From Methanococcus aeolicus Nankai-3 (lineage in GTDB: Archaea; AGJL01; Methanococci; Methanococcales; Methanococcaceae), in NCBI RefSeq assembly GCF_000017185.1, contig NC_009635.1:248563-312562 (forward strand): DNA of 64,000 nucleotides, read 5' to 3'. The notes below the pieces were generated by a model. The model worked only from the letters and a program-made list of their open reading frames with translations, did no database searches and had not been told where the DNA came from. Positions 6,934-46,614 of this stretch are shown piece after piece (position 1 is the first letter of the stretch; each line of letters begins with the position of its first letter). The position numbers were made by a program, and so were the translations under genes.

Positions 6934-7030
6934 AATTTTCTGGAAATTAAAACTCTAAAAAATATTATAATATTTGAAATTAAAATAATAAAATACAATA
7001 TATAAAATATATAATACAAAATATAAAAAA

Positions 7031-9970
7031 TTATTCAATATAAATAGCAACTTTATTTGGAATTGCAAATCTCTTTTTATTTCCAATGTCTTCCCCATTC
7101 ACAATTATTTTACATTGGAATTCATTTTCAAGGAATTGTTTTGCATCATTTAATATGTTCTCTTCGTCTATTGGGTTAGAAATTCCATTTTTAACTATTT
7201 CATTTATTAATTTTGGAATTTCTTTTCCATATCTTCTTAATTCTGCATTTTTCATAATCAATGGCATCATTTTATTAACGGGAGCTCCTTTATTTTCCAT
7301 CATAATTTTTAAAACTTCAAATTTCCAGTCATCAGCAGTATATAAATAAATAGTTTTTGGGGCGATATTTGCTATATTTATTATATTTCTTATATCGTCC
7401 ATTGTGTTTTTTATGAATTCTTCCCCCAATTCACAATTTTCATTTATATAACTATTATCTAGTTGCGGGAATGTTTCATTTGATATATAATTATTATTTT
7501 TATTATATCCAAACATCTCCCAAATTTCTTCGCATAAATGGGGTGTAATTGGTGCCAATACCTTTGTCCATATTTCAACAACATATTTTAATAGCTGGTT
7601 GTTATTTCCTCCTCTTCTTTTATACCACTTCAAATTATGAGTTAAACCATAAAATAAAGTTCCTATTTTTCTAAGCTGGAATTCATTATATGATTCATTT
7701 ATTATTTTTAAATCAGAATGAACTTTATGCAATAGCCATTTATCAATGGTGGATAATTCTGTTATTGTTTTTTCTGTATCCTTTAACTCTGTTGCCAATT
7801 CATAAAATCTAATTAAATTATCCCTTGCATGTTCCATTTCTTTAAATTTAACATCTGCATCGTGGGGGAGCTCCGCACATGTTGTAATGTAAAACCTACC
7901 TACATCAGGACCATAATTTGTTGCAACCTCCTCAATAGGAAGAACAGGACCTTTTGATTTAGACAATTTTTTACCTTCAATAGTTACATAGCCATTTACA
8001 ACAATTCCCTTTGGGTAGTATTTTTCATCATCAAATAAAGCCACATGGTTAAATATCATAAATGTTAAATGATTTGGAACAAGGTCTTTTGCCGAACATC
8101 TCCAATCAAGCGGATAATAATATTCAAATTCATTTCTCATTTCATTTATTAACTCAACAGGTATTTTTGTATTATTGGATATTTCGTTTATATCTCCTTT
8201 TCCATAATATACATAGTCAAACAACTCTGGAATAAGTTGTTCTGGCAATATATTGTTGGTATTTATTGTTTTTGCCACTGTATAATATGCCATATATAGA
8301 GTACTATCTGAAAGACTTTCAATAACCCAATCTTTATCAAATGGAAACCTTGTTCCAAGTCCTTTTTTCCTTGCACAGGCTTTATCCTTCATCCAATCAA
8401 TTTTATTGTGGAAATCCATCCTTATAGTTTCAGGCACAAAATTCATTTTATCTACCCAATTATGTGCCTTTTTTTTCCATTCTAAATCAGAATATGTAAT
8501 AAACCATTGCCCTTTAACAGTTTTTACAATACATTTTTCACCGCATCTACATACCACTTCTGGAATGGAAAATTCTTGAAGTGTTTCGGCCATATTGTTA
8601 TTTATAAAATCACTTGCTAACTTGTCTTTAATGTCCCTTACGGCAATTCCCTCATATTCTCCACAATTTTCATTTAATATCCCCTTGTGAAATTCCTGTT
8701 TATAAATTGTATGTGTGGCATCCTCTAATTTTTCGTCCTTTTGGTTTGTTATGCCCATTTTTTCTACAATTTCCTTTGCAGGATATTTTCCATATCCATC
8801 TATTTTTATAAGGGATATTAATTCATCATCAGTTAATTCTTTATTAATGCTACTGTAGTAATCCCTAAGTGCTACAAAATCCTTTGGAGCATGTGCTGGA
8901 ACACTCATTACACAGCCTGTTCCCATTTCGGAGCTCACAAAATCAGCAGGATATAGTGGAACCTCCTTATTATTTACTGGATTTATTACAATTTTTCCTA
9001 CCAATTCCTCTCCCTTTATTTCTTTTATTAATTCTACTGTTCTATCTTGATTTTTAAGTTTATCTGAGGCTTCTTTACTTACTATCCAAATGCCATTATA
9101 TTTTAACGATATTTCGTCGCTACCTTCCTCTTGGCTTTGCACTTCATCATAAACCTTTATTATGTGGTATGTATCATTTGGATTTATCCAAGCATTGACT
9201 ACTCCATATATTGTTTCTGGTCTAAGTGTGGCCATTGGGATTATACATTCATATTCTTTATCTTCGCCGTCTATTTCGATATTTAATTTTGTTTTAAATT
9301 TCAACAATATATATTCTTGAAGTGTTGCCTCCTCCCCCTTTAATAAATCGTGGTCTTCCACAGGATTATCACAACTTGGGCAATATCTAACAGGGTGCGA
9401 ACCTTTTACTATTAAATTTTTCTCTTTTAATTTTAAAAATTGCCATTCTACAAATTTTTTAAATGTTTCGTCATCTGTTTTAAAGTTCCTTCTCCAATCA
9501 AGAGCAAATCCCATTTTTTTAAATGATTCCGTAGCCTTTTTTGAAAAATAATTTACTATATTTTCTGGTGTTGTGAGTGTTTGGAGCTCCCCCATAGGAA
9601 TATTATGAAGTTTGTTGTATGCCCAAATAGTTTCTGGTGCCTGTTTTTTTAGGAGCTCCGCCAATCCAATAATTGGGGTTCCACTAACATGAAAACCAAA
9701 AGTCCATAATACTGTTTTATTATTCATTCTTTGGTATCTTGCCGTTATTTCGGGAATTGTAAAAGTTCTTAAATGTCCAGCATGGAGCACTCCATTTAAA
9801 TAAGGAAATGCTGCTGTAATAAAAAATTTATCTTTTTTTTCTTGTTCCGTATATTTTAATTTAGATGGATTTTCAAATATTTTATCTTCTTCCCATCTTT
9901 TTTGCCATTTTTCCGCAATCTTAACAAAATCAACGCTCATGTTATCAGTCCCTATATTTTTATAGTTCAT
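7031..9970 (-). CDS. leuS: leucyl-tRNA synthetase
   Basis: 979 aa; HIGH motif 'LHAGHLRTF', KMSKS motif 'KLSKSKG'; archaeal LeuRS length. Confidence 0.9.
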   Translation of the reverse strand: MNYKNIGTDNMSVDFVKIAEKWQKRWEEDKIFENPSKLKYTEQEKKDKFFITAAFPYLNGVLHAGHLRTFTIPEITARYQRMNNKTVLWTFGFHVSGTPIIGLAELLKKQAPETIWAYNKLHNIPMGELQTLTTPENIVNYFSKKATESFKKMGFALDWRRNFKTDDETFKKFVEWQFLKLKEKNLIVKGSHPVRYCPSCDNPVEDHDLLKGEEATLQEYILLKFKTKLNIEIDGEDKEYECIIPMATLRPETIYGVVNAWINPNDTYHIIKVYDEVQSQEEGSDEISLKYNGIWIVSKEASDKLKNQDRTVELIKEIKGEELVGKIVINPVNNKEVPLYPADFVSSEMGTGCVMSVPAHAPKDFVALRDYYSSINKELTDDELISLIKIDGYGKYPAKEIVEKMGITNQKDEKLEDATHTIYKQEFHKGILNENCGEYEGIAVRDIKDKLASDFINNNMAETLQEFSIPEVVCRCGEKCIVKTVKGQWFITYSDLEWKKKAHNWVDKMNFVPETIRMDFHNKIDWMKDKACARKKGLGTRFPFDKDWVIESLSDSTLYMAYYTVAKTINTNNILPEQLIPELFDYVYYGKGDINEISNNTKIPVELINEMRNEFEYYYPLDWRCSAKDLVPNHLTFMIFNHVALFDDEKYYPKGIVVNGYVTIEGKKLSKSKGPVLPIEEVATNYGPDVGRFYITTCAELPHDADVKFKEMEHARDNLIRFYELATELKDTEKTITELSTIDKWLLHKVHSDLKIINESYNEFQLRKIGTLFYGLTHNLKWYKRRGGNNNQLLKYVVEIWTKVLAPITPHLCEEIWEMFGYNKNNNYISNETFPQLDNSYINENCELGEEFIKNTMDDIRNIINIANIAPKTIYLYTADDWKFEVLKIMMENKGAPVNKMMPLIMKNAELRRYGKEIPKLINEIVKNGISNPIDEENILNDAKQFLENEFQCKIIVNGEDIGNKKRFAIPNKVAIYIE

Positions 9971-33146: not shown

Positions 33147-33254
33147 TTATATATGATTTAAAGATTTGGGAATGTCTAGAGGTATGGGGGAGCTCCTAGA
33201 ATTAAAATCGAAAAGTATATATAGTAGGTTGCCCATCTTAAAATAGTGAGTAGT

Positions 33255-33339
33255 GCGGAGATGGCCCAGTCTGGTACGGCGCGGGACTGCTAATCCCGTT
33301 GGGCTTTGCCCAACCCGAGTTCAAATCTCGGTCTCCGCG
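33255..33339 (+). tRNA. tRNA-Ser (anticodon GCU)
   Basis: Cloverleaf: acceptor GCGGAGA/TCTCCGC, anticodon stem-loop CGGGA-CUGCUAA-UCCCG (anticodon GCU), long variable arm 'TTGGGCTTTGCCCAACC', T-arm CCGAG-TTCAAAT-CTCGG; no encoded CCA. Confidence 0.8.
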
Positions 33340-34555
33340 TTTTATTTTTAAGACTATTTTATGCTTTTTTAAGACTATTTTAGTGTTTTCACATTACGGG
33401 ACTAAGTCCCGCAATGTCAATTGGAACTGTAATTAGTAATATGCGGGATTGATATATTTTTTTAAAATTAAATTATTCTTTTAACATTTTTTGTTTTCTT
33501 TCCCTGGGATGAGTATAATATAAAGTAGTATCTATTTTTTATGCCTCGTGTAATCTATTACAATTTCAATAGAAAACCCACTATCTAAAAGAGCAACTGC
33601 TCTACCATGCCGTAATGAGTGGAGAACTATTTTTTATTTTTTGGGGGTTTTGATTCCTCCTTTAATTCTTTTACAGTTTTTCTAAAAACTTCACTTATCC
33701 CTCCGTTGTTATTCTTTCTCCCATGTGGTTTTGAAATATATAATCTTCTTCTCCTTGATTGAGGTTATATTTTATATAATCAACCAGTGCATTTAATGTA
33801 TCCTCCGAGTATACACCATCCCTTTCTACTTTTCCTTTTGTATTTTTTATTTTAAAAACACCTTCCTTTAAATCTACATCCGGTTTTAAATTTATACTTT
33901 GGATAGCCTACAACCAGTATTCCACAATATCCTAATAATATTGTGTGAATTAAAAAATTTGACTCTAGGATTTTGTTTTTTAAAATTAGTTCCTGTGGTT
34001 TTGAGGTGAAATATTTCCCTTCATCGCCGATTTTAAGGGAGCTCCCCAAATTTATGGCATGGTATTTGTTCTATTTTTAGGATAATAATGCCGCCATTAT
34101 TGTTTAATTTGATTATTTCCTTATATTTCATAATTTCACCCAATGAATTTCATTAACATATTCTTTTCCTCTTACTGCACCTATTAAATGTTCTATTTTA
34201 TTAATCTGTTTCATTTTTTTCTTGATACATATCTTCCGACATATTATCTCGTTTCATATTATTACGGCCATTTCCATTACATTAATGCCAACATCAATTC
34301 CCATGCCTTATTTTTACATGTTTCTTCCGAATACGCGCCCTTATCAGTAGTAGTATTTTAGGTTGTGTTTTATTTTTTTGATTAAAAAATTATGGGAAAT
34401 TATATATATCTTAAAAATATAATTATTATATTGTATAACATATGTTTACATATGTGTGTATGGCATGGAGGTGATGATAGGTAAAAATAACAAGAGGAAA
34501 TATTAAGAGAGGTAAATTCACTAAAACTATAACTTTTAAAAGTAGAGGGCAAAAC

Positions 34556-35215
34556 ATGAATCTGGAGCACTTTAGTTTTCTAAAAAATAAAAAAGGTGCT
34601 ATGGGCATAGGTACATTAATTATATTTATCGCTATGGTATTAGTTGCAGCAGTTGCAGCAAGTGTGTTAATTAACACAAGCGGATTTTTGCAACAAAAAG
34701 CATCTTCCACAGGTAAAGAAAGCACCGAACAGGTAGCTAGTGGAATACAAATATTACAAATTAGTGGTATGCATAATACTACTCACATGAATAATTCTGC
34801 AATATATGTCACACCAAATGCAGGTAGTTCAGCAATTGATTTAAGCCAGTCTATTATTATTTTGGCAAGTGGTACATCAGAAAGAACTATTAGTTATAAT
34901 ATTTCAAAGGCACAAAGTTATGATTCAATAACAACTGGCGGTTCAGTATTTGGGTCACCAGTATGGGATAACCTAACTTCAAAAGACTTTGGCATAATTG
35001 TAATAGTAGATTCAGATGGATCATGCCAAAATATTACCCCAGTTATAAATAAAGGAGACCTTGTAGTATTGGCATTGAATACCGCAGATATGGATATGAC
35101 TCCTCGGACAATTGTAACTGGTTTAGTAAGGCCAGAGTTCGGAGCTCCGGGTGTGATATCATATATGACGCCTGCGACATATATTAATGATGTAACTGTG
35201 GTAAGGCTCCAATAA
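34556..35215 (+). CDS. flaB: archaellin (class III signal peptide)
   Basis: 219 aa. Signal '[15 protein letters not shown]|[35 protein letters not shown]'. The N-terminal hydrophobic domain is nearly identical across the five paralogs. C-terminal 'RPEFGAPGV'. Confidence 0.9.
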   Translation: MNLEHFSFLKNKKGAMGIGTLIIFIAMVLVAAVAASVLINTSGFLQQKASSTGKESTEQVASGIQILQISGMHNTTHMNNSAIYVTPNAGSSAIDLSQSIIILASGTSERTISYNISKAQSYDSITTGGSVFGSPVWDNLTSKDFGIIVIVDSDGSCQNITPVINKGDLVVLALNTADMDMTPRTIVTGLVRPEFGAPGVISYMTPATYINDVTVVRLQ

Positions 35216-35345
35216 TGTGGTAATGCAGTATTGAAGTATCATTGGCGTATAAATATCTAAAAGCCAGAGTTCGGAGCTCCTGTAATTGGGGCCTACAATA
35301 TATATTATATATGCCAATATTGTCATTAAAAATAGGGGTAATATT

Positions 35346-36656
35346 ATGAAAATCCTTGAATTTTTAAAAAATAAAAAAGGTGCCATGGGCATAGGTACAT
35401 TAATTATATTTATTGCCATGGTATTAGTTGCAGCAGTTGCAGCAAGTGTGTTAATTAACACAAGCGGATTTTTGCAGCAAAAAGCATCTTCCACAGGTAA
35501 AGAAAGCACCGAACAGGTAGCTGGTGGATTATTATGTTATGGGGTACGAGGACATATTTTCAAAAGTGGTAATATATTTTATGATTTAGATAAAATGGTA
35601 ATGTATATTTCACCAAATTCCGGAAGTGCTCCAATTGATTTAAAAGAATCTAAATTGTTCTTAACATACGATGGTAAAAGCGTAGTATTGAAATACAGTG
35701 ACATAATATCTGCTACTGATGGAAGTCAGGATGTATTCAGTTTGACAAATGGATTTGCCATAAACTATTCAAATGTAACACATCCTGTAACAACTACAAA
35801 TCTTATAGACGATGTGTCATCTGCTTTTGAAATAAATTATACTGGGGCAACTCACCCAACAACAACTACAACACTTATAAATGGTACCGTAGATAAGATC
35901 AATATAACATCAAATAATGCTAATTTACTAACTATATTCAACGGTCTAAGAGTAGGGGACATAGTGACTATGGATACCAATGCTACCAATTGGACACCCA
36001 CAACAGCTACCGACGCCACTGTAGTAAGTGTAACAAATCTCGGTACTGGAGATTATGAAGTCATCATGAACTTCTCAACTAATGTGGTAAATGATGCATC
36101 CACTACAACAATATTGCCAAATACTGACTGGGTAAAACTCAATGGATCGGCATATGTGGATAAAATTAAAATTGCCACAACCAATTCAAAGTTAAAAACA
36201 GTATTGAAAGGATTATCTGCGGGAGATTCTGTAACTGTATTATCCAATAATACAATAACTTCAGAAAATACAACCACAGTAGATAGTATATCATATGATG
36301 GTACCACATTTACAGTTATTATGAATTTCGCGAATTATACTATAATATCTGCTAATGCAACATTGGGTACATCAGACTGGGTAAAACTCAACGGAACAGC
36401 AGTATGGGGAGGAGCAGACGACAAATCATTCTTGATAGCCCCATTACAAGATAATGATAACTCGGTAGTAAATGGAGGAGTTATCAACAAAGGAGACTTT
36501 GTAGCAATACTTGTAAATTCAGAGGCGGCATTTGATACAGAAATTCCCGAAAGAACAAGAGTTTTAGCTAGATTCCAACCAGAGTTCGGAGCTCCTGCGG
36601 TCGTAGATTTCACTACGCCGATTGCATACACCAAAGAAATCATGGAATTACAGTAA
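35346..36656 (+). CDS. flaB: unusually large archaellin (436 aa) with internally duplicated central modules
   Basis: Start reassigned to '[17 protein letters not shown]' at 35346 (the ORF track begins upstream). Conserved archaellin N- and C-termini flank an insert of about 230 aa that contains repeated segments and many N-X-S/T sequons. Confidence 0.85.
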
Positions 36657-36686: not shown

Positions 36687-37331
36687 ATGAAAATCCTTGA
36701 ATTTTTAAAAAATAAAAAAGGTGCCATGGGCATAGGTACATTAATTATATTTATTGCCATGGTATTAGTTGCAGCAGTTGCAGCAAGTGTGTTAATTAAC
36801 ACAAGCGGATTTTTGCAACAAAAAGCATCTTCCACAGGTAAAGAAAGCACCGAACAGGTAGCTAGTGGACTCGAGATATTACAGGTTACGGGTTTGCATA
36901 ATAATACCAACATAAATAAAACTGCAATATACATTTCACCAAATGCAGGTAGTTCAGCAATTGATTTGGGTGAAACTGTTACAATGATATCAGACGGAAC
37001 CTCAGAAAGAATGACTAACTATAATTCTTCCCAGTATGATACATTAGTAACTGGCGGTTCAGTATTCACTTCGGCTGCATGGACAAATTTAAGTAGTAAT
37101 GATTTCGGTATAATTGTAATTCAAGATGCAGATGGATCATGTCAAGCTGCTACTCCAGTTATAAATAAAGGAGACATTGTAGTAATTGCATTAAATACCG
37201 AAGGATTAAGTATGGGGACAAGGTCAATTATAACAGGTTCAGTAAGGCCAGAATTTGGAGCCCCTGGTATAATATCCTTTACAACGCCTTCAACATACTT
37301 AGAAACAGTTCAAATTGTGAGCCTCCAATAA
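36687..37331 (+). CDS. flaB: archaellin (copy 1 of a tandem triplet)
   Basis: 214 aa; near-identical to the next two genes; part of a 703-bp tandem repeat. Confidence 0.9.
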   Translation: MKILEFLKNKKGAMGIGTLIIFIAMVLVAAVAASVLINTSGFLQQKASSTGKESTEQVASGLEILQVTGLHNNTNINKTAIYISPNAGSSAIDLGETVTMISDGTSERMTNYNSSQYDTLVTGGSVFTSAAWTNLSSNDFGIIVIQDADGSCQAATPVINKGDIVVIALNTEGLSMGTRSIITGSVRPEFGAPGIISFTTPSTYLETVQIVSLQ

Positions 37332-37389
37332 GGGGCCCACAATATATATTATATATGCCAATATCGTCATTAAAAATAGAGGTAATATT

Positions 37390-38034
37390 ATGAAAATCCT
37401 TGAATTTTTAAAAAATAAAAAAGGTGCCATGGGCATAGGTACATTAATTATATTTATTGCCATGGTATTGGTTGCAGCAGTTGCAGCAAGTGTGTTAATT
37501 AACACAAGCGGATTTTTGCAACAAAAAGCATCTTCCACAGGTAAAGAAAGCACCGAACAGGTAGCTAGTGGACTCGAGATATTACAGGTTACGGGTTTGC
37601 ATAATAATACCAACATAAATAAAACTGCAATATACATTTCACCAAATGCAGGTAGTTCAGCAATTGATTTGGGTGAAACTGTTACAATGATATCAGACGG
37701 AACCTCAGAAAGAATGACTAACTATAATTCTTCCCAGTACGCTACATTAACAACTGGCGGTTCAGTATTCGATTCGACTGCATGGACAAATTTAAATAGT
37801 AATGATTTCGGTATAATTGTAATTCAAGATGCAGATGGATCATGCCAAAATATTACCCCCGTTATAAATAAAGGAGACATTGTAGTAATTGCATTAAATA
37901 CCGAAGGATTAAATATGGGGACAAGGTCAATTATAACAGGTTCAGTAAGGCCAGAATTTGGAGCCCCTGGTATAATATCCTTTACAACGCCTTCAACATA
38001 CTTAGAAACAGTTCAAATTGTGAGCCTCCAATAA
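37390..38034 (+). CDS. flaB: archaellin (copy 2 of tandem triplet)
   Basis: 214 aa; differs from copy 1 at about 8 residues and from copy 3 at about 3 residues. Confidence 0.9.
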   Translation: MKILEFLKNKKGAMGIGTLIIFIAMVLVAAVAASVLINTSGFLQQKASSTGKESTEQVASGLEILQVTGLHNNTNINKTAIYISPNAGSSAIDLGETVTMISDGTSERMTNYNSSQYATLTTGGSVFDSTAWTNLNSNDFGIIVIQDADGSCQNITPVINKGDIVVIALNTEGLNMGTRSIITGSVRPEFGAPGIISFTTPSTYLETVQIVSLQ

Positions 38035-38092
38035 GGGGCCCACAATATATATTATATATGCCAATATCGTCATTAAAAATAGGGGTAATATT

Positions 38093-38737
38093 ATGAAAAT
38101 CCTTGAATTTTTAAAAAATAAAAAAGGTGCCATGGGCATAGGTACATTAATTATATTTATTGCCATGGTATTAGTTGCAGCAGTTGCAGCAAGTGTGTTA
38201 ATTAACACAAGCGGATTTTTGCAACAAAAAGCATCTTCCACAGGTAAAGAAAGCACCGAACAGGTAGCTAGTGGACTCGAGATATTACAGGTTACAGGTG
38301 TGCATAATAATACCAACATAAATAAAACTGCAATATACATTTCACCAAATGCAGGTAGTTCAGCAATTGATTTGGGTGAAACTGTTACAATGATATCAGA
38401 CGGAACCTCAGAAAGAATGACTAACTATAATTCTTCCCAGTACGCTACATTAACAACTGGCGGTTCAGTATTCGATTCGACTGCATGGACAAATTTAAAT
38501 AGTAATGATTTCGGTATAATTGTAATTCAAGATGCAGATGGATCATGCCAAAATATTACCCCCGTTATAAATAAAGGAGACATTGTAGTAATTGCATTAA
38601 ATACCGAAGGATTAAATATGGGGACAAGGTCAATTATAACAGGTTCAGTAAGGCCAGAATTTGGAGCCCCTGGTATAATATCCTTTACAACGCCTTCAAC
38701 ATACTTAGACACAGTTAAAATTGTGAGCCTACAATAA
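38093..38737 (+). CDS. flaB: archaellin (copy 3 of tandem triplet)
   Basis: 214 aa; start codons at 36687, 37390 and 38093 are spaced exactly 703 bp apart. Confidence 0.9.
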   Translation: MKILEFLKNKKGAMGIGTLIIFIAMVLVAAVAASVLINTSGFLQQKASSTGKESTEQVASGLEILQVTGVHNNTNINKTAIYISPNAGSSAIDLGETVTMISDGTSERMTNYNSSQYATLTTGGSVFDSTAWTNLNSNDFGIIVIQDADGSCQNITPVINKGDIVVIALNTEGLNMGTRSIITGSVRPEFGAPGIISFTTPSTYLDTVKIVSLQ

Positions 38738-38929: not shown

Positions 38930-39475
38930 ATGCCAATATCCAATATGATCAATAAAATAAAAAACATATTTGCCAAAGATAAAACTAGGAATAATCCCCC
39001 TAGGAATAAATCCGAGGAAGAAGAAAATGAATTATGGAATGAAGAGGAGGAGATAAACCCAACATCTGAAACAGAAGAACTTCTTGCCAGAACAGGGGAA
39101 CTTGAATCAAAAATTCCAAGATTGGAAATGACAATTACAAGCCTAAAAAAAGAGAATGATGAATTAAGAGATAGCATCCATAAAATAAATGAAAATTTTC
39201 AAGATGTTATGTCACTTTATGAGGTGGTTTCAAATCAGGTAAATCCATTTATAGGCACTTCAAAAATTACCTCAAATACTATTGAAAATATAGAGAAATT
39301 GGAAAATGAGACGGAATATCTTAAAACTAAAGTAGAAGGGTTGCATAATGATATTGTATGTCTCGCTGACTTATATTTAAAGCAATATGATGTAGATTTG
39401 GATGAAATTATCGAAGATATATTAATAGATGAAGAAGTCTCCAAAATAATATCAGGGGATGATTTAAATGGATAA
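38930..39475 (+). CDS. flaC: archaellum accessory protein FlaC
   Basis: 181 aa, acidic coiled-coil protein in the canonical position after the archaellin genes. Confidence 0.7.
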   Translation: MPISNMINKIKNIFAKDKTRNNPPRNKSEEEENELWNEEEEINPTSETEELLARTGELESKIPRLEMTITSLKKENDELRDSIHKINENFQDVMSLYEVVSNQVNPFIGTSKITSNTIENIEKLENETEYLKTKVEGLHNDIVCLADLYLKQYDVDLDEIIEDILIDEEVSKIISGDDLNG

Positions 39476-40355
39476 TGAGAACACTATGCCTCCGAATATG
39501 GAGGATTATTTAACCGAAGATGAAGTGGAAGAATATTTAGATGGATTAAATACTAAAATTCCAACATTTATGGTAGAATTGCTAAGAAAAAATCTAAGAG
39601 ATAAAAAATTAAATAAAGATCAATTGGACAGGATTGTGGATCGGGTTTTTAATATATATATGGGTAAAAAACCAGAAGACAAAAAAATAAAAGAACTAAA
39701 TAATAAACTTAATGAATTATCTAGTAAATTGGATGCATTACTTAAACTTGCTACAATATCCTCCGCGACCAAGATTTCTAGCGAACTTGAAGAAGAATTA
39801 AATGAAAAAGGACAGGGCAAAGATGGAGAAATCGATGTTCAAGATGCGATATTATCCGATTCTGAACACATTGCAATAAATTCAGACGATGCAGACAGGG
39901 TAGATGAATCGTCTGACAAAAATATGGTATTGGGTAACGAAAAAGATTTATCAATAGTCCGTAGTAAAAATAAGGTGCAAGGTACATATAAACTTGAGAG
40001 TCTATCTGAGGATCCGCTGTCCACTGTTTTGGCATTTAAATGGATTGAATTTTTAGCAGGTCGGGTCGGCATAAATAATTTAATGAATATGTTAGACTAT
40101 TATCATGATCTCAAATGGATATCAGAAGATGTTGTAGCTCGATTGATAAAAATATCTAAAACTATGGAATACTTAACTGAAGAAAATAATAAAATTGACG
40201 AAGTTGTTAATAAAATGGTACCTGAAGATCATATCGTTTCAATACTTTATGTTGAAAAATTAGCTGGTCGGACAATATCTGCTGATGAATTAGAGCATAT
40301 AGATAGGGAAGTAAGTAAGATTAAACAATGGGTTAATGAATTACAAAATATATAA
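39468..40355 (+). CDS. flaD: archaellum accessory protein FlaD
   Basis: 295 aa; C-terminal domain ('LKWIEFLAGRVGINNLMNMLDYYHDLKWISEDVV') is homologous to the FlaE C-terminus. Confidence 0.75.
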   Translation: MDNENTMPPNMEDYLTEDEVEEYLDGLNTKIPTFMVELLRKNLRDKKLNKDQLDRIVDRVFNIYMGKKPEDKKIKELNNKLNELSSKLDALLKLATISSATKISSELEEELNEKGQGKDGEIDVQDAILSDSEHIAINSDDADRVDESSDKNMVLGNEKDLSIVRSKNKVQGTYKLESLSEDPLSTVLAFKWIEFLAGRVGINNLMNMLDYYHDLKWISEDVVARLIKISKTMEYLTEENNKIDEVVNKMVPEDHIVSILYVEKLAGRTISADELEHIDREVSKIKQWVNELQNI

Positions 40356-40386
40356 ACATCAATGAGTATTATGGAGGTGCATAATT

Positions 40387-40797
40387 ATGAATACCCCAGT
40401 AGCATTATCTTCATTATTGTTTGAAACACGACAAGTAACCAAGTTGAGAGATATTCCGGAAGACCCGATATCTATAATATATACATTAAAATGGTTAGAC
40501 TATTTATCCGAGAGGGTTAGCACCTCAAATGTGTCAAATGCTGTAAAAATATATTATAATTTAGGTTGGATATCTGATGAAGTAGTATTGCAATTATTAA
40601 CATATTTAAAAGGAATTAAAAAAGATAACTACGATTTGAAAGATAATTCATGCAAACTTACAATAACTGATCATCTGGTTTCATTACTATTTATTGAAAG
40701 AATAAATGGTAAAAAAACATCTGGTGAAACACTCGATACAATAGAGTGGGAAATAAGAAAAATAAAAGAGGGGGTTGAACAATCATATGGGATTTAG
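40387..40797 (+). CDS. flaE: archaellum accessory protein FlaE
   Basis: 136 aa; 'LKWLDYLSERVSTSNVSNAVKIYYNLGWISDEVV' is paralogous to the FlaD C-terminal domain. Confidence 0.75.
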   Translation: MNTPVALSSLLFETRQVTKLRDIPEDPISIIYTLKWLDYLSERVSTSNVSNAVKIYYNLGWISDEVVLQLLTYLKGIKKDNYDLKDNSCKLTITDHLVSLLFIERINGKKTSGETLDTIEWEIRKIKEGVEQSYGI

Positions 40798-41194
40798 TTC
40801 AATTGCTGGATTTTTGGTATTGATATCGACATTATTGGCATGTTCATTATATCTGTATGATAATGTGGACTCAAGCCTGACTGAAATAAATAGTGCATAT
40901 TCTGAATATATCGAACATTTGAGCGATAAATCAGATGAAAAATTAATAATAACTTCGGTCGTGGGTGTTGATGGTAATATATATATTAATGTGTTAAATA
41001 ATGGCTCATTAACTAATGAACCATATAAATGGACAGCATTATACAATGGTACTCCAAAAGGAATTAGCATCGATTCAAATATAACATACCTAACTCCATT
41101 AAATAATGTGACCATTACAATAATAGGGACGGCCCCTGCCAGGATATGTATTGTGTCAGAATATGGAAATAAATATTATTATTATTTAAATTAA
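40775..41194 (+). CDS. flaF: archaellum stator-associated protein FlaF
   Basis: 139 aa; N-terminal TM plus beta-sandwich-like domain; position in operon. Confidence 0.7.
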   Translation: MNNHMGFSSIAGFLVLISTLLACSLYLYDNVDSSLTEINSAYSEYIEHLSDKSDEKLIITSVVGVDGNIYINVLNNGSLTNEPYKWTALYNGTPKGISIDSNITYLTPLNNVTITIIGTAPARICIVSEYGNKYYYYLN

Positions 41195-41324
41195 TAAATA
41201 TTCATGGTAAATATTTATATTTATATTTACTTATTTATTCTTAGAGTTATTTTAACTTAAAAATATAAATACCCATATAATTAATATATTTTAAGATAAC
41301 TTCGCCTGTTCGGTAGGTGATTTA

Positions 41325-41780
41325 ATGGCATCTAATACATTCTCGGAAATTATTATGTTTGTTGTTGTTTTAATAATTGCCGCCTCAGTTTCGGGAATTC
41401 TTGTGGCCAATACTCACCAAATATCATTAGGTATGGCTACTAAGGGAGAGGTAATCTCGTCTAAATTATCCAATATTTTTGAAATTATCAATGATCCAGA
41501 AAATATTCCCAGAAATGAAAGCACCGGCATTATTTCAATATATATAAAAAACACGGGGAAAACACCATTTGTATTTAATTCTGGGGTTACAACCGTTCTT
41601 ATTGATGGAGATATTAAAACAATAAATTATATGACTGCAATAAGTAGTGCCTCAAATGAAATGTTAGATCCGTCGAAAATTGGTAGAATCGATGTTGAAT
41701 ACAATACTACTGGATATCATAGGTTAAAAGTAGTTTCTGAATACGGTGGAGCCCGAACATTGAAAATGCATATCCAATGA
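41325..41780 (+). CDS. flaG: archaellum protein FlaG
   Basis: 151 aa; N-terminal TM helix plus soluble domain; position in operon. Confidence 0.7.
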   Translation: MASNTFSEIIMFVVVLIIAASVSGILVANTHQISLGMATKGEVISSKLSNIFEIINDPENIPRNESTGIISIYIKNTGKTPFVFNSGVTTVLIDGDIKTINYMTAISSASNEMLDPSKIGRIDVEYNTTGYHRLKVVSEYGGARTLKMHIQ

Positions 41781-42490
41781 GTATATTTGGTGGTTTTATG
41801 AAAATTGCAGAAATTAAAATTGATAGGGATGATGTTCACAAGAGATTGGGCGGAGGCATACCTTGGGGGAGCATAATTCTTATTGAGGGGGAAGAATCCA
41901 CAGGGAAATCAATCATCTCTCAAAGACTTACTTATGGATTTCTACAAAATAACCACTCTGTCGTATATATCTCAACACAGTTAACAACCACGGAGTATTT
42001 GAAACAAACTAGGTCTTTGAATTATGACATGAACAAAAAACTTTTATATGGTGATATTTTATATATTCCCGTATATCCATTACTATCGCACAATATTCGA
42101 AGAGAAAACTTCATAGATAAAATTATGAGTACTAAACTATTCTATGAAAAAGATATAATTATATTTGATACATTATCTTCACTTATATTAAATGATGTAA
42201 GTGATATAACTACGCATGATTTAGTGGCTTTTTTTAAAAGAATTGTGGGTATGAATAAGATTATAATTTATACCATTAATCCAAAAGAACTTTCTGAATC
42301 CATGTTGCTATTACTGCGGACTGCAGCAACAGTAATATTTAAAACTGAAATTTATTCATTTGGGAATAATATTAAAAATATGATTAAAATTGAAAAATAC
42401 AATTTAGCCCTAGGACCATTTCAAAAAAGCATAATATACCGAGTGGATCCGAAAATAGGTATTGCAGTGGAAATATCCTCCATAGCATAA
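41777..42490 (+). CDS. flaH: archaellum ATP-binding protein FlaH (RecA/KaiC-like)
   Basis: 237 aa; Walker A 'GEESTGKSIISQ'; overlaps the flaG stop. Confidence 0.85.
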   Translation: MSIFGGFMKIAEIKIDRDDVHKRLGGGIPWGSIILIEGEESTGKSIISQRLTYGFLQNNHSVVYISTQLTTTEYLKQTRSLNYDMNKKLLYGDILYIPVYPLLSHNIRRENFIDKIMSTKLFYEKDIIIFDTLSSLILNDVSDITTHDLVAFFKRIVGMNKIIIYTINPKELSESMLLLLRTAATVIFKTEIYSFGNNIKNMIKIEKYNLALGPFQKSIIYRVDPKIGIAVEISSIA

Positions 42491-42523
42491 TTTATACACA
42501 AAACTTACCTTAATACTAGATGT

Positions 42524-44167
42524 ATGGGTGGCGAGATGGAAGATGAATTTAATATAATGATGAACAATAATCCACATTTAAAAGAATATGTAGATAAATT
42601 TAAAAAAAAATATAAGAATATCCCTGTATTTAATGCGACATTGTCAGGAGAGTTAAAGGAAGAAATATACCCCAATATAATTTACCCCATAGGAGACCCA
42701 TTATTTATTCATATATACGGAGCTCCCAAAATTAGTACGACATATAATGTCATAGAACCACGGTTAATGCCTGATGAAATAAGGGCATATAAATCAATAA
42801 TGGATAAGATTTTAGAATATGCTCCTTATGAAGAGGCCCCCGAGGATGATGAAGAATTTGAAAAAATAATTGAAAAATTGTTTAAAAGATCAACTAAAAT
42901 AGTTAATAGTAAAAATAACAAAAAAAGCCTTTTTAACCATCTAATTGGTGGAAAGATAAAAATTACACAGGATGAATTTTATAAATATGATTATTTATTA
43001 AAAAGAGATTTGGTGGGAATAGGTGTTCTTGAACCCATTAAACGAGATCCGTATATTGAAGATATACATATAATTGGTTCACATAATTGTCAGCTTATCC
43101 ATAAATTATTTGATTTACTGCCTACAAATATATATTGGAACGATGATTTAGAACTTTTTAGTTATCTAAAAAATTTATGTGAGCGAATCGGAAGGCCTGT
43201 TTCTGATGCAACCCCCATTATTGATGGTTCTCTTCCTGATGGTTCAAGGTTAAATCTATTATATTCTAGTGATATTTCATTAAAGGGGCCCTCATTTACT
43301 ATTCGAAAATTTACGGATATTCCTATAAGTATAACTCAAATTATAAATTGGGGAACCATGTCGGCAAGAATTGCAGCATATTTGTGGTTATGCATGGAAT
43401 ACGGTATGAGTGTATTTATATGTGGTGAGACTGCATCAGGTAAAACCACAACATTAAATGCAATATTGCCATTTATTAAACCCAAATCAAAGATATTTTC
43501 TTGTGAGGATACTTCAGAGGTTAAACCTCCGCAGCCAGTATGGCAGCAGCTACTTACAAGGGAAAGAGGACCCGAAGAAAGTAGGGTTACATTATTTGAT
43601 TTATTGAGGGCCGCTTTACGGTCTAGGCCTAATTATATTATTGTAGGGGAGATAAGGAGTATTGAAGGTGCCGTAGCATTCCAGGCAATGCAAACAGGAC
43701 ACCCCGTTCTGTCAACATTTCATGCTGCAAGTGTTAGGAAAATGATTCAGCGATTAAATGGGAATCCAATTAATATCCCATTAACATTTATGGATAATTT
43801 AAATGTAACACTTTTCCAATTGGCAGTATATAATAAAGGAAAATTTTTAAGGAGAGTTGTAAGTATTGAGGAACTTGAAGGATATTCAAAATACGCAGAG
43901 GGAATTGTAACTAGGGGAGTTTTTGAATGGGACCCACAGCTTGATAGGCATAATTTTACAGGATTAAATAACAGCTATATTCTCGAAGATAAAATTGCAA
44001 CGGTTGCAGGTTATGATGACCCCCGGGAGATATACGAAGAACTGGATTTAAGGACAAGAATATTGGAAGAAATGGTATCTAGAAATATTTTTGGATATGA
44101 TGAAGTAGTAAAAATAATATGGGATTTCTATAAAGAAGGTTTGGACGGCCTTCCATTCCCGATCTAA
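42524..44167 (+). CDS. flaI: archaellum assembly ATPase FlaI (type II/IV secretion ATPase family)
   Basis: 547 aa; Walker A 'CGETASGKTTTLNA', Asp box and His box ('GEIRSIEG', 'HPVLSTFH'). Confidence 0.9.
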   Translation: MGGEMEDEFNIMMNNNPHLKEYVDKFKKKYKNIPVFNATLSGELKEEIYPNIIYPIGDPLFIHIYGAPKISTTYNVIEPRLMPDEIRAYKSIMDKILEYAPYEEAPEDDEEFEKIIEKLFKRSTKIVNSKNNKKSLFNHLIGGKIKITQDEFYKYDYLLKRDLVGIGVLEPIKRDPYIEDIHIIGSHNCQLIHKLFDLLPTNIYWNDDLELFSYLKNLCERIGRPVSDATPIIDGSLPDGSRLNLLYSSDISLKGPSFTIRKFTDIPISITQIINWGTMSARIAAYLWLCMEYGMSVFICGETASGKTTTLNAILPFIKPKSKIFSCEDTSEVKPPQPVWQQLLTRERGPEESRVTLFDLLRAALRSRPNYIIVGEIRSIEGAVAFQAMQTGHPVLSTFHAASVRKMIQRLNGNPINIPLTFMDNLNVTLFQLAVYNKGKFLRRVVSIEELEGYSKYAEGIVTRGVFEWDPQLDRHNFTGLNNSYILEDKIATVAGYDDPREIYEELDLRTRILEEMVSRNIFGYDEVVKIIWDFYKEGLDGLPFPI

Positions 44168-44185
44168 AATAATTGGGGTAATTAT

Positions 44186-45862
44186 ATGGTGTTAAATATT
44201 TTGCCGCGAATAGGATTAAGGCCCAGAGATTATTTATTAAAATATGTTTTTCCTTCGACAATAATATCAATTATTATACTTGCCATAGGTTTAAATTATT
44301 TTTCGGGCTACACTTTATTAACTACATTAACAATTCCAATCGTTATTATGGGCGGTGCTTTGGGTTATCCATTTATAAAATTACATGATCAGAAAACTAA
44401 AATAAATGAAAAACTTCATGTATTTATATCTAAATTTGGAGTACTTTCAATAACAGATTTAGATAGAAAGGAACTTATACATTTGCTTGCATTAGAAAAA
44501 GATGAATTGGGACAGTTGGCAGATGAATCAAACAAAATATATGTATTGTTGAATAGATGGAATCAATCACTTGCTGAATCTTGTAGATTTTTATCGCGCA
44601 GGACTCCAAGTGATGAATTTTCAGATTTTTTAGATAGAATGTCGTATTCAGTAGATAGTGGTGAGGACCTTAAATCATTTTTGATTAAAGAACAGGATAT
44701 TGTTCTAAATGATTATATAGAATTTTATAGGCGATCCTTGTATATGTTGGACATATTCAAAGAAATATATGTTAGTGCAATCACGGCACTTTCATTTCTT
44801 ATAACTTTTGCAATTATCACCCCATATATAGCTCCGTATGATTTTATATCTATGGTAATTATGTCACTTATTGCTTTTGTTGTATTGGAAATCCTGTTAG
44901 TACAGATAATAATAAATCAAATGCCAAGAGATAAATTATGGCATCAAGCCGATAGGCCCACACAAATCGATCTGAGCATTAGAAAATATTTAATAATTTC
45001 TATCATATTGTCGGTAATTACTATGTCTGCCCTAATCTGGGGAAAATATATTGCAGAAATTCCAAAATTGGTGTTAATTCCATATCAAATGGTGTTTGCT
45101 ATTGGTATTACTCCCCTATTAATTGGTGGGTTCAAGGCAAAAAGAGAAGAAGATTTGACCATAAGAAGAGAATATAATTTTCCAGATTTTTTAAGGTCCT
45201 TGGGCGATTCAGTATCTGCAAAAGGAGGGGGGATGAAAGACTCTTTGGAATATCTTTCATATCATGATTTTGGTCCATTAACTAAAAATATAAAGCATCT
45301 TTACAAAAGAATGGTATTAAACATCGATAGTAATAAAACATGGAAATTGTTTGGAGTTGAAACAAGTAGTTATTTAATACAATTATTTTCGGAAATGTTT
45401 GAAAGATGTACATATTTGGGAGGTAATCCTGGATTAGCATCAGATATAATCGGAAATAATTTTCGTAAAATAATACATTTAAGGAAATCAAAATATCAAA
45501 GTGTTAAGCAATTCTCTGGTACCATGTATGGATTGGCTGGGGGCATGGCTTTAACATTATTCACAGTTCATGGAGTAACCAATATGATAAATAAATTATA
45601 TGCAGGACTTAATATGGGACAGGTTATGAATCTTATACATGTTGTGCCATCCGAGGACATGAATATTGTAGCATATCTAATGTATGCAAGTTTAATACTT
45701 TATTCTATGTTTTCGGCATATTTAATAAAAATGATGGATGGAGGTCATCCACAAGTCGTTTTGGTGCATTTTGTTATAATGGTATGGGTAGTATCTATTG
45801 TAGCATGTGTAACAGGATATGTGCTGGATATAGTATTGGGAACCACTATTTCAATAGCTTAA
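44186..45862 (+). CDS. flaJ: archaellum membrane platform protein FlaJ (TadB/C-like)
   Basis: 558 aa polytopic membrane protein immediately after flaI. Confidence 0.85.
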
Positions 45863-45909
45863 AAAAATATTTGCCCTTTATGTTATATATTGTGGGGAGG
45901 AAGATCACT

Positions 45910-46614
45910 ATGGTAACTTATATTTTTGGATTAATCGGATTATTGGTAGCGTCTATACAAGATATTAAAAGTAGGGAAATCGAAGATTATATTTGGATAT
46001 CGATGGTGATTTTTGGATTAATTTATAATATATATTTATCTATGGCAACCGGAAACTATTTCTTTATTATAAATTCAATTTTTGGATTCATAATATGTTT
46101 TGTACTTGGCTATTTGATGTTTTTATTTGGGGTAGGGGGAGGAGATGGAAAAGTATTAATTGGCATGGGGACACTTACTCCAAATTATGATATGCCAATT
46201 TATTCAACATTGGGAAATATACTTACCATAGGATACATCCCCGCATTTCCAATAATGGTTTTTATAAATGGTATGTTTTTTATGATATTTTTGCCCATAA
46301 TTATATTAATACAAAATTTATTGAAAGGAAATACGCCAAAAAATTTTAAAGAAATTATGGTGTTATCATTTGGAGAAAAAATGAAAGTTAGCGAAGCAAA
46401 AAAGAAAAATAGACTTATAATGGGTCGTGATAATGATAAAATTAATTTATTTCCTTCGTCAGAAGATGATGATTTTTCCAAGTATTCTGACGACGAAATT
46501 ATATATGTCACTCCAATGATACCATTAATTATTCCTATAACTATTTCATATATTATTACGCCATTTATTGGTGATAATATCATATACCTAATAATATCAA
46601 ATATAAAAATATAA
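45910..46614 (+). CDS. flaK: FlaK/PibD-like preflagellin (class III signal) peptidase
   Basis: Start reassigned to '[20 protein letters not shown]' at 45910. First catalytic Asp lies in '[13 protein letters not shown]'; the second lies in the 'GGGDGK' motif, comparable to GxGDVK of A24-family aspartyl peptidases. About 234 aa, polytopic. Confidence 0.7.

Follow-up and report, generated by a model that had tools for sequence, protein, structure and literature searches.

Why does Methanococcus aeolicus Nankai-3 encode one archaellin which is twice as long as those encoded next to it? The gene lies in an A/T-rich stretch of 64,000 nucleotides (nt) of contig NC_009635.1 (positions 248,563 to 312,562, forward strand; G+C about 30%), hereafter the window, and all coordinates count from its first letter. 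The open reading frame (ORF) at 35346-36656 (+) codes for 436 amino acids (aa), and a database search returned an annotated 'flagellin' at 100% identity. It is the second of five archaellin genes in tandem, preceded by a 219-aa gene (34556-35215) and followed by three genes of 214 aa each; the first-pass annotation, a note made from the sequence alone, had given these lengths correctly. This is a genuine archaellin gene of double size compared with its paralogs. We propose that it probably encodes a structural filament subunit of the ArlB1 type which co-polymerizes with the 214-aa archaellins of the ArlB2 type and displays a glycosylated outer domain on the filament surface. Class, insertion site, domain architecture, distribution and conservation of sequons, purifying selection and co-linearity with the partner genes are taken from sequence and structure prediction; from there we infer filament incorporation, stoichiometry, actual glycosylation and a physical effect on the filament.

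The archaellin core and its class

Three family profiles match the large protein: PF01917 (Arch_flagellin; 127 bits, cut-off 29.5) and NCBIfam NF006325 'flagellin' (244 bits, cut-off 210), both split into two stretches on either side of an insert, and TIGR02537 for the class III signal peptide (E 5.8e-10). The protein starts with a short signal peptide, positively charged and with a terminal Gly, which is followed by a hydrophobic N-terminal helix. The N-terminal ~59 aa are the same as in the paralogs, and in the AlphaFold2 model of the full protein residues 4-59 form a helix. The conserved C-terminal region, the other end to which the first-pass annotation had pointed, is kept as well.

The filament of Methanocaldococcus villosus (M. 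villosus) is built from two archaellins, ArlB1 and ArlB2, which alternate (Gambelli et al., 2022; PMC8821640). We deduced which chain of PDB entry 7OFQ is which from the precursor lengths in that report (221 and 225 aa) minus 12 residues. When the PDB was searched with phmmer the large archaellin had its best match in 7OFQ_A (ArlB1) with 225 bits, compared with 143 bits for the ArlB2 chain. The paralogs show the inverse: 7OFQ_B (ArlB2) is the best match of the 214-aa proteins (228 bits vs 166 for ArlB1) and of the 219-aa protein (208 vs 153 bits). Foldseek, queried with the AlphaFold2 model of the large archaellin, also ranked 7OFQ_A first.

A neighbor-joining tree (200 bootstraps) was calculated for the head domains alone, i.e., with helix and inserts removed, using the archaellins of six loci and database matches. 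Three clades emerged, ArlB3/hook (200/200), ArlB1 (184/200) and ArlB2 (144/200). The ArlB1 clade holds the large archaellin, all insert-bearing archaellins and an insert-less FlaB1-like protein from M. maripaludis; all four small M. aeolicus archaellins are in the ArlB2 clade. Further, the five metal-binding residues listed for M. villosus ArlB1 (D154, D156, S158, N166 and D169; PMC8821640) are conserved without exception, as D369, D371, S373, N381 and D384. By these sequence measures the large protein is an ArlB1-class archaellin, and no other gene of the M. aeolicus cluster belongs to this class. Genes of this class habitually come first, as in M. okinawensis, Methanofervidicoccus and one metagenome-assembled genome (MAG). 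In M. aeolicus the gene is second, after the 219-aa ArlB2-class gene; first position is a habit and not a strict criterion of the class.

The first-pass annotation had suggested a hook-like or minor archaellin, a proposal to which the ArlB1 head runs counter. As for the hook, the large protein would form a curved, cell-proximal region in place of an ArlB3-class archaellin. Judged by sequence, M. aeolicus appears to have no archaellin of the ArlB3/hook class: none of the five in the window has the ArlB3 helix variant or an ArlB3 head, and an ArlB3-class query from M. okinawensis retrieved many other Methanococcales and no M. aeolicus protein among the best 120 database matches. This vacancy is in favor of a hook role. 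Likewise, a two-module ortholog went undetected in sheared filaments of a relative, for which a cell-proximal location is one explanation offered (PMC10117864). However, the large archaellin is outside of the ArlB3 clade, which segregates in every bootstrap, and has no ArlB3 helix variant; membership in this class is ruled out. Moreover, a dedicated ArlB3-class gene is present alongside its orthologs in M. okinawensis, in MAGs and in OX296583.1, which we take as Mtc. thermolithotrophicus or a close relative because of its four-gene archaellin cluster. Thus, hook formation was not the ancestral role, and we consider it very unlikely as the present one. In every relative examined the ArlB3/hook-class gene is the last archaellin gene.

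An outer domain of duplicated modules

What, then, is the additional half of the protein? The gene and its parts are:

35346..36656 (+), large archaellin, ArlB1 class, 436 aa, mature about 424 aa, 45.1 kDa before glycans
35346..35381 (+), class III signal peptide, aa 1-12, followed by AMGIG; putative cleavage site placed after M. villosus and Methanococcus archaellins (TIGR02537; PMC8821640)
35382..35522 (+), N-terminal hydrophobic helix, aa 13-59; DNA 97-100% identical across the five paralogs
35523..35744 (+), core head domain, part one, aa 60-133; alignment to 7OFQ_A up to residue 122
35751..35891 (+), two ~23-aa predicted beta-hairpin repeats, aa 136-158 and 159-182, with 5 sequons
35892..36155 (+), module 1, aa 183-270, predicted small beta-barrel with one helix; only in the 435-437-aa orthologs
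36156..36401 (+), module 2, aa 271-352, orthologous to the single module of 320-337-aa archaellins; last sequon N349
36402..36653 (+), core head domain, part two, aa 353-436, with D369, D371, S373, N381, D384 and the PEFGAP motif; 7OFQ_A alignment

The alignment to 7OFQ_A is broken between mature residues 121 and 122, equivalent to precursor residues ~133-134, and the insert spans aa ~134-348. Its ~215 aa come close to the ~230 aa originally estimated. The internal repetition which the first-pass annotation had reported, with segments of roughly 70-80 aa, is real: residues 182-269 and 271-352 align locally with a score of 146, whereas shuffled sequences gave 44.7 +/- 7.9 and at most 74. The two modules are 82-88 aa long and 41% identical to each other. 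A second repeat, of ~23 aa, is located immediately upstream and corresponds to the hairpin units.

AlphaFold2 modeled the full protein with a predicted local distance difference test score (pLDDT) of 83.1 and a predicted TM-score (pTM) of 0.72, and the insert alone with 90.6 and 0.78, respectively. In the model the insert starts with two beta-hairpins; two units follow, each with about six strands and one short helix, predicted as small closed beta-barrels. The beta-sandwich which had been expected initially is not what is predicted. Long unbroken strands at aa 149-166 and 262-278 join successive units, which suggests a rigid assembly and not beads on a string.

To judge from sequence searches the outer domain is an orphan, confined to this archaellin lineage. 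A Pfam search with the insert and with single modules yielded sub-threshold noise only, and an insert profile found no match among PDB sequences at E-values up to 10. A profile of hairpin and module run against 1.84 billion representative proteins retrieved archaellins of its own lineage and one marginal match, a T-rich repeat protein (P0121), which we dismissed as compositional. Foldseek matches to viral structures were dismissed as well, with TM-scores of 0.19-0.28.

The original pair is formed by hairpin 1 and module 2. The order is hairpin 1, hairpin 2, module 1, module 2, instead of a simple alternation of hairpin and module. This suggests that the second unit is a copy of the domain inserted into itself, i.e., a nested arrangement. 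Alternatively, the order may result from two separate duplications.

Sequons at an outward-facing loop

The large archaellin has 15 N-glycosylation sequons (N-X-S/T, X not P): 14 in the insert, one in the buried N-terminal helix and none in the core head. The first-pass annotation had claimed more than 20. This total was overstated, yet the density it stressed is real, as the 14 sequons of the T/N-rich insert compare with 7.6 +/- 2.2 in composition-preserving shuffles (P ~0.008). The 158 residues of the core head carry no sequon, whereas the heads of the small paralogs have 4-5. The sites thus appear to have moved almost wholly from the core head to the outer domain. All three two-module orthologs share 13 of the 15 sequons.

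The position of the insert fits with this distribution. In M. villosus N133 of ArlB1 is glycosylated, and residues K131-A137 of ArlB2 were described as an 'outward-facing glycosylation loop' (PMC8821640). N349 of the large archaellin aligns with N133. On the basis of this alignment the insert is located at the outward-facing loop, beside the known glycosylation site of M. villosus ArlB1/ArlB2. Because it maps to this loop and because sequons are enriched in it, the insert is best understood as an exposed surface domain bearing glycans; this is what the first-pass annotation had surmised, and the conservation of the sequons agrees with it.

The same surface loop is extended in another archaellin. 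The ArlB3-class protein of M. okinawensis (285 aa, locus positions 9001-9858) and related MAG proteins have a ~45-aa sequon-rich insertion early in the head and, besides, extra residues at the loop where the ArlB1 insert sits.

Evolution of the insert

The first-pass annotation had left it to an alignment with other Methanococcales whether the insert is unique. It is not. Orthologs with two modules and 435-437 aa were found by database search in Methanothermococcus okinawensis (79% identity) and in OX296583.1 (75% identity), and versions with a single module, 320-337 aa long, in Methanofervidicoccus and several metagenomic contigs and MAGs. Thus, the architecture is shared by close relatives, and the archaellins of Mtc. 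thermolithotrophicus have been analyzed by mass spectrometry (PMC10117864). A module hidden Markov model (HMM) had no significant match outside of the set formed by Methanothermococcus, M. aeolicus and Methanofervidicoccus.

Among the three two-module proteins module 1 is 69-70% and module 2 82-83% identical, whereas modules 1 and 2 share only 37-44%. The single module of the shorter archaellins clusters with module 2. At the DNA level the longest match between both modules is 21 nt. Together with the orthologs in other genera this dates the duplication before the split of the genera; a recent duplication or an assembly artefact is ruled out by the short DNA match and by the separate orthologs of each module.

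The archaellin operons of the relatives, given in aa, read 437 / 218 / 285 (ArlB3) in M. okinawensis, 327 / 216 / 285 (ArlB3) in a Methanothermococcus MAG, 331 / 216 / 212 / 223 (ArlB3) in Methanofervidicoccus A16 and 329 / 436 / 216 / 217 in OX296583.1. The order is a large ArlB1, then ArlB2, then ArlB3. It follows from these operons that an archaellin with an insert invariably takes the ArlB1 position in this lineage. OX296583.1 has two ArlB1-class genes in tandem (locus positions 6981-9311), one with a single module (329 aa) and one with two modules (436 aa). Their cores are almost identical, and the proteins differ essentially by a block of 107 aa which comprises hairpin 2 and module 1. 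These two are candidates for interchangeable filament versions.

The ratio of nonsynonymous to synonymous substitution rates (dN/dS) of the insert is 0.28-0.33, i.e., the insert is under purifying selection. Between genera the insert is 74-75% identical, compared with 70-78% for the core head. From these comparisons the module duplication is ancient, common to Methanothermococcus and maintained by purifying selection. As a side aspect, M. aeolicus and M. okinawensis differ less at the synonymous sites of the insert (35745-36401; synonymous divergence, dS, 0.46) than at those of helix and core head (0.87-0.89), for which constraint on the codons of the T/N-rich insert or an exchange of later date may be responsible.

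Conservation of this kind bears on another proposal of the first-pass annotation, a surface for receptor variation or phage evasion. The outer domain would then be a variable decoy or receptor mask under pressure from viruses or predators, comparable to the antigenic variation of the D2/D3 domains of bacterial flagellins. The dense glycan coat predicted from the sequons would suit such a mask, and so would the change of module number, one or two, among close relatives and paralogs. Some M. maripaludis strains have quite different inserts at the same position. But the dN/dS ratio gives no sign of diversifying selection, the insert is conserved over three genera to the same extent as the core, and the sequons have kept their positions. 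To our knowledge no virus of Methanococcales binds to the archaellum. A decoy function is very unlikely.

The archaellins of these M. maripaludis strains (GCA_013761165.1, locus positions 8001-9212; P0013, P0014, P0015) are 326-403 aa long and located in the FlaB1 position. They carry no sequon except the buried N38, and the module HMM did not match them significantly (best domain, independent E-value 0.039). Since FlaB1 without an insert also occurs in M. maripaludis, archaellins of the B1 type exist with and without an outer domain inside one species.

The filament

How might such a subunit function? In analogy to other archaellins FlaK would remove the 12-aa signal peptide, and the N-terminal helix, the same as that of the paralogs, would pack into the filament core. 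The head may co-assemble with the 214-aa ArlB2-class archaellins in the way ArlB1 and ArlB2 alternate in M. villosus. The outward-facing loop of the head would bear the ~215-aa domain, predicted as two beta-hairpins and two rigidly linked small beta-barrels. This domain would project from the filament surface, or lie on it, together with nearly all N-glycosylation sites. A glycosylated proteinaceous outer layer at every ArlB1 position would then change surface chemistry and mechanics of the filament.

Experimental data are available from a relative. Sheared archaella of Mtc. thermolithotrophicus contained ArlB1 and ArlB3 as major proteins, each with an N-linked heptasaccharide, and no peptides unique to ArlB2 or ArlB4 (reviewed in PMC10117864). 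If these names correspond to the order of the genes, the one-module protein of 329 aa is ArlB1, the two-module ortholog of 436 aa is ArlB2, the 216-aa protein of the ArlB2 class is ArlB3 and the hook-class protein is ArlB4. The two major proteins would then stand for the ArlB1 and the ArlB2 class with one subunit each, like those of the M. villosus filament.

Several points weigh against a co-polymerized large subunit. The mapping of the four names is an assumption. If it is correct the two-module ortholog was undetected in the sheared filaments; this is weak evidence because only a sequon-rich stretch of ~107 aa yields peptides unique to it. Four ArlB2-class genes stand against one of the ArlB1 class, which is unlike a 1:1 ratio and allows a filament mainly of ArlB2. 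The archaella of Mtc. thermolithotrophicus were reported as ~13 nm wide and no thicker than those of M. voltae (PMC10117864), so that an outer layer from one module must be thin. Finally, Meshcheryakov et al. (2026; PMC13357602) proposed that large archaellins usually are down-regulated.

Most of these points can be turned into an alternative, a minor or conditionally expressed subunit of the accessory or ecoparalog type. The everyday filament would consist mainly of 214-aa archaellins, and the large protein, sparse or bound to certain conditions, would alter surface and adhesion. The gene ratio, with three near-identical tandem copies for the small partner, the undetected ortholog and the down-regulation proposed as typical are all compatible with it. 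So is the tandem pair of OX296583.1 if its almost identical cores denote interchangeable versions. Further, the 214-aa proteins have their second-best PDB match in FlaB0 of P. furiosus, whose solved structure is that of a homopolymer (PMC8821640). On the other hand, the large gene is the only ArlB1-class gene of its cluster, and the same holds for M. okinawensis, while in M. maripaludis B1 and B2 archaellins are both required (PMC10117864).

The DNA also argues against a minor subunit. The spacer ahead of the large gene (35288-35345), including the ribosome-binding site, is 95-97% identical to those before the second and third 214-aa genes (37332-37389 and 38035-38092). The first 214-aa gene starts 30 nt past the large gene. 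An oligo-T run occurs only once, behind the last archaellin gene, and no terminator separates the large gene from the 214-aa genes. We disregarded a scan for bacterial sigma-70 promoters and terminators, which does not apply to archaea. In codon usage the large gene is similar to its small paralogs. Scored along an axis of codon preference that contrasts the heads of the small archaellins with other ORFs of the window, its core and its insert each reach -0.016, a value which none of the 33 background ORFs attains (mean -0.080, standard deviation 0.025). Such archaellin-like synonymous codon usage is weakly consistent with high expression. On balance, we view a minor subunit as unlikely and a regular ArlB1-type subunit as the probable role.

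One may carry the idea of a regular ArlB1-type subunit further. The archaellum would be a half-sheathed heteropolymer in which ArlB1 with its rigid, glycosylated two-barrel domain alternates with bare 214-aa ArlB2, devoid of a dedicated hook archaellin and with an outer domain of nested build. We advance this complete picture only tentatively; taken as a whole it is possible but doubtful. If true, it would amount to a patterned outer layer unlike that of plain archaella and of the fully sheathed filaments of Haloarcula.

The archaellin locus

Around the large gene the locus has the following features:

34556..35215 (+), 219-aa ArlB2-class archaellin, divergent, first in the cluster
35288..35345 (+), 58-nt A/T-rich spacer with TATA-like ATATATATTATATAT and AGGGGT ribosome-binding site
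36687-37331, 37390-38034, 38093-38737 (+), three near-identical 214-aa ArlB2-class archaellin genes, presumed co-polymerizing partners
38930..46614 (+), accessory genes flaC/D/E, ArlF, ArlG, FlaH, FlaI, FlaJ and FlaK

The assembly genes ArlF, ArlG, FlaH, FlaI, FlaJ and FlaK are directly downstream of the archaellin genes. The FlaK preflagellin peptidase ORF (45784-46614) directly follows flaJ with an overlap of 79 nt. Since the family match begins at residue 44 only, and in view of this overlap, the true start probably is downstream, near 45913.

All five archaellin genes share ~160 nt at 97-100% identity (34583-34745, 35367-35530, 36708-36870, 37411-37573 and 38114-38276), which code for the last residues of the signal peptide and for the N-terminal helix. 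Past this stretch identity drops abruptly to background, and the head-coding DNA cannot be aligned in register. The conserved stretch and its sharp boundary between helix and head indicate concerted evolution of the helix region. The 214-aa genes form tandem units of 703 nt with 97-99% identical DNA (first vs second gene 628/645, second vs third 639/645), which points to recent amplification or ongoing gene conversion.

Between the 219-aa and the 436-aa genes, at 35264-35282, lies a 19-nt fragment, CCAGAGTTCGGAGCTCCTG, which codes for 'PEFGAP' and is identical to the 3' region of the large gene itself; the standard 58-nt spacer is next to it. The fragment looks like a recombination or deletion scar of the end of a lost archaellin gene. 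Upstream of the cluster a tRNA-Ser(GCU) at 33254-33340 is followed by ~1.2 kb (to 34555) with no ORF of at least 60 aa on the operon strand (the longest is 57 aa). The region 33254-34555 has one 65-aa ORF on the reverse strand and no Rfam match; a gap of this size is unusual for a compact archaeal genome. In all relatives a divergently transcribed HEAT-repeat gene borders the fla cluster; the M. aeolicus window does not contain it.

Comparison with known archaellins

The closest structural counterpart is M. villosus ArlB1. It is the best match of the core by sequence and by fold, with the same signal peptide and helix, the five metal ligands, a glycosylated Asn beside the insertion point and ArlB2-class paralogs alongside. 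It differs in having no outer domain; the M. aeolicus protein exceeds its 221 aa by 215 residues and has no sequons in the core head. The two-module archaellins of Mtc. thermolithotrophicus and M. okinawensis are orthologs with the same succession of two hairpins and two modules, and by gene order the one-module paralog of the former is a major glycosylated filament protein. Unlike these species M. aeolicus has the two-module form only, its cluster starts with an additional 219-aa gene, the small partner is present in triplicate, and an ArlB3-class gene could not be found.

Outer domains of diverse predicted kinds are found on large archaellins from different archaeal groups, and in Haloarcula marismortui ArlA2 and ArlB (~450 aa; 9V95/9V96) form a protein sheath which doubles the filament diameter, resulting in 20-nm archaella (Meshcheryakov et al., 2026; PMC13357602). 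As in M. aeolicus, a canonical archaellin core is combined with an outer domain, there of ~230-250 aa and forming an extra protein layer. However, the outer domains possess no detectable sequence homology: the insert profile did not retrieve these PDB entries, and full-length phmmer matches to 9V95/9V96 are mainly N-terminal. The Haloarcula outer domain is a bi-lobal double beta-sandwich, whereas hairpins and two small beta-barrels are predicted for M. aeolicus. Haloarcula filaments are homopolymers of the large subunit; for M. aeolicus a mixed filament with small subunits is expected. The ~13-nm archaella reported for Mtc. thermolithotrophicus argue against a thick sheath from the one-module form.

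Oversized archaellins were known before, among them ArlB2 of Thermococcus kodakarensis, with 580 aa, and ArlB3 of Natrialba magadii with a central insert (PMC10117864). Similar to the M. aeolicus protein they combine a large central insertion with normal-sized paralogs, yet they belong to other lineages and the module HMM has no significant match there. The D2/D3 domains of bacterial flagellins likewise represent an exposed insert of variable domain content in a conserved polymerizing core, and such outer domains can form sheaths or modulate mechanics (PMC13357602). Family and assembly machinery are unrelated, thus the comparison is an analogy only; in addition, the M. aeolicus insert is conserved and not hypervariable.

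As far as we searched, the literature has nothing on M. aeolicus archaellins, and the outer domain has not been described in work on the archaellins of Mtc. thermolithotrophicus and M. okinawensis. The gene was already annotated as a flagellin, close orthologs exist, those of a relative having been detected by mass spectrometry, and archaellins with outer domains were recognized. The finding is an extension and not a new kind of archaellin. New are the orphan, duplicated and possibly nested domain, its restriction to the ArlB1-type partner and the apparent shift of sequons out of the core head into the outer domain.

Sheaths made of outer domains were demonstrated structurally only recently, in Haloarcula. 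M. aeolicus adds an independent, non-homologous outer domain in one lineage of Methanococcales, and it is placed specifically on the ArlB1-type partner of what probably is a two-component filament. With one- and two-module forms in close relatives a testable system is at hand for the effects of outer domains and glycans on filament mechanics, surface properties and adhesion. It is equally suited for asking whether a heteropolymeric filament can bear an outer layer on alternate subunits.

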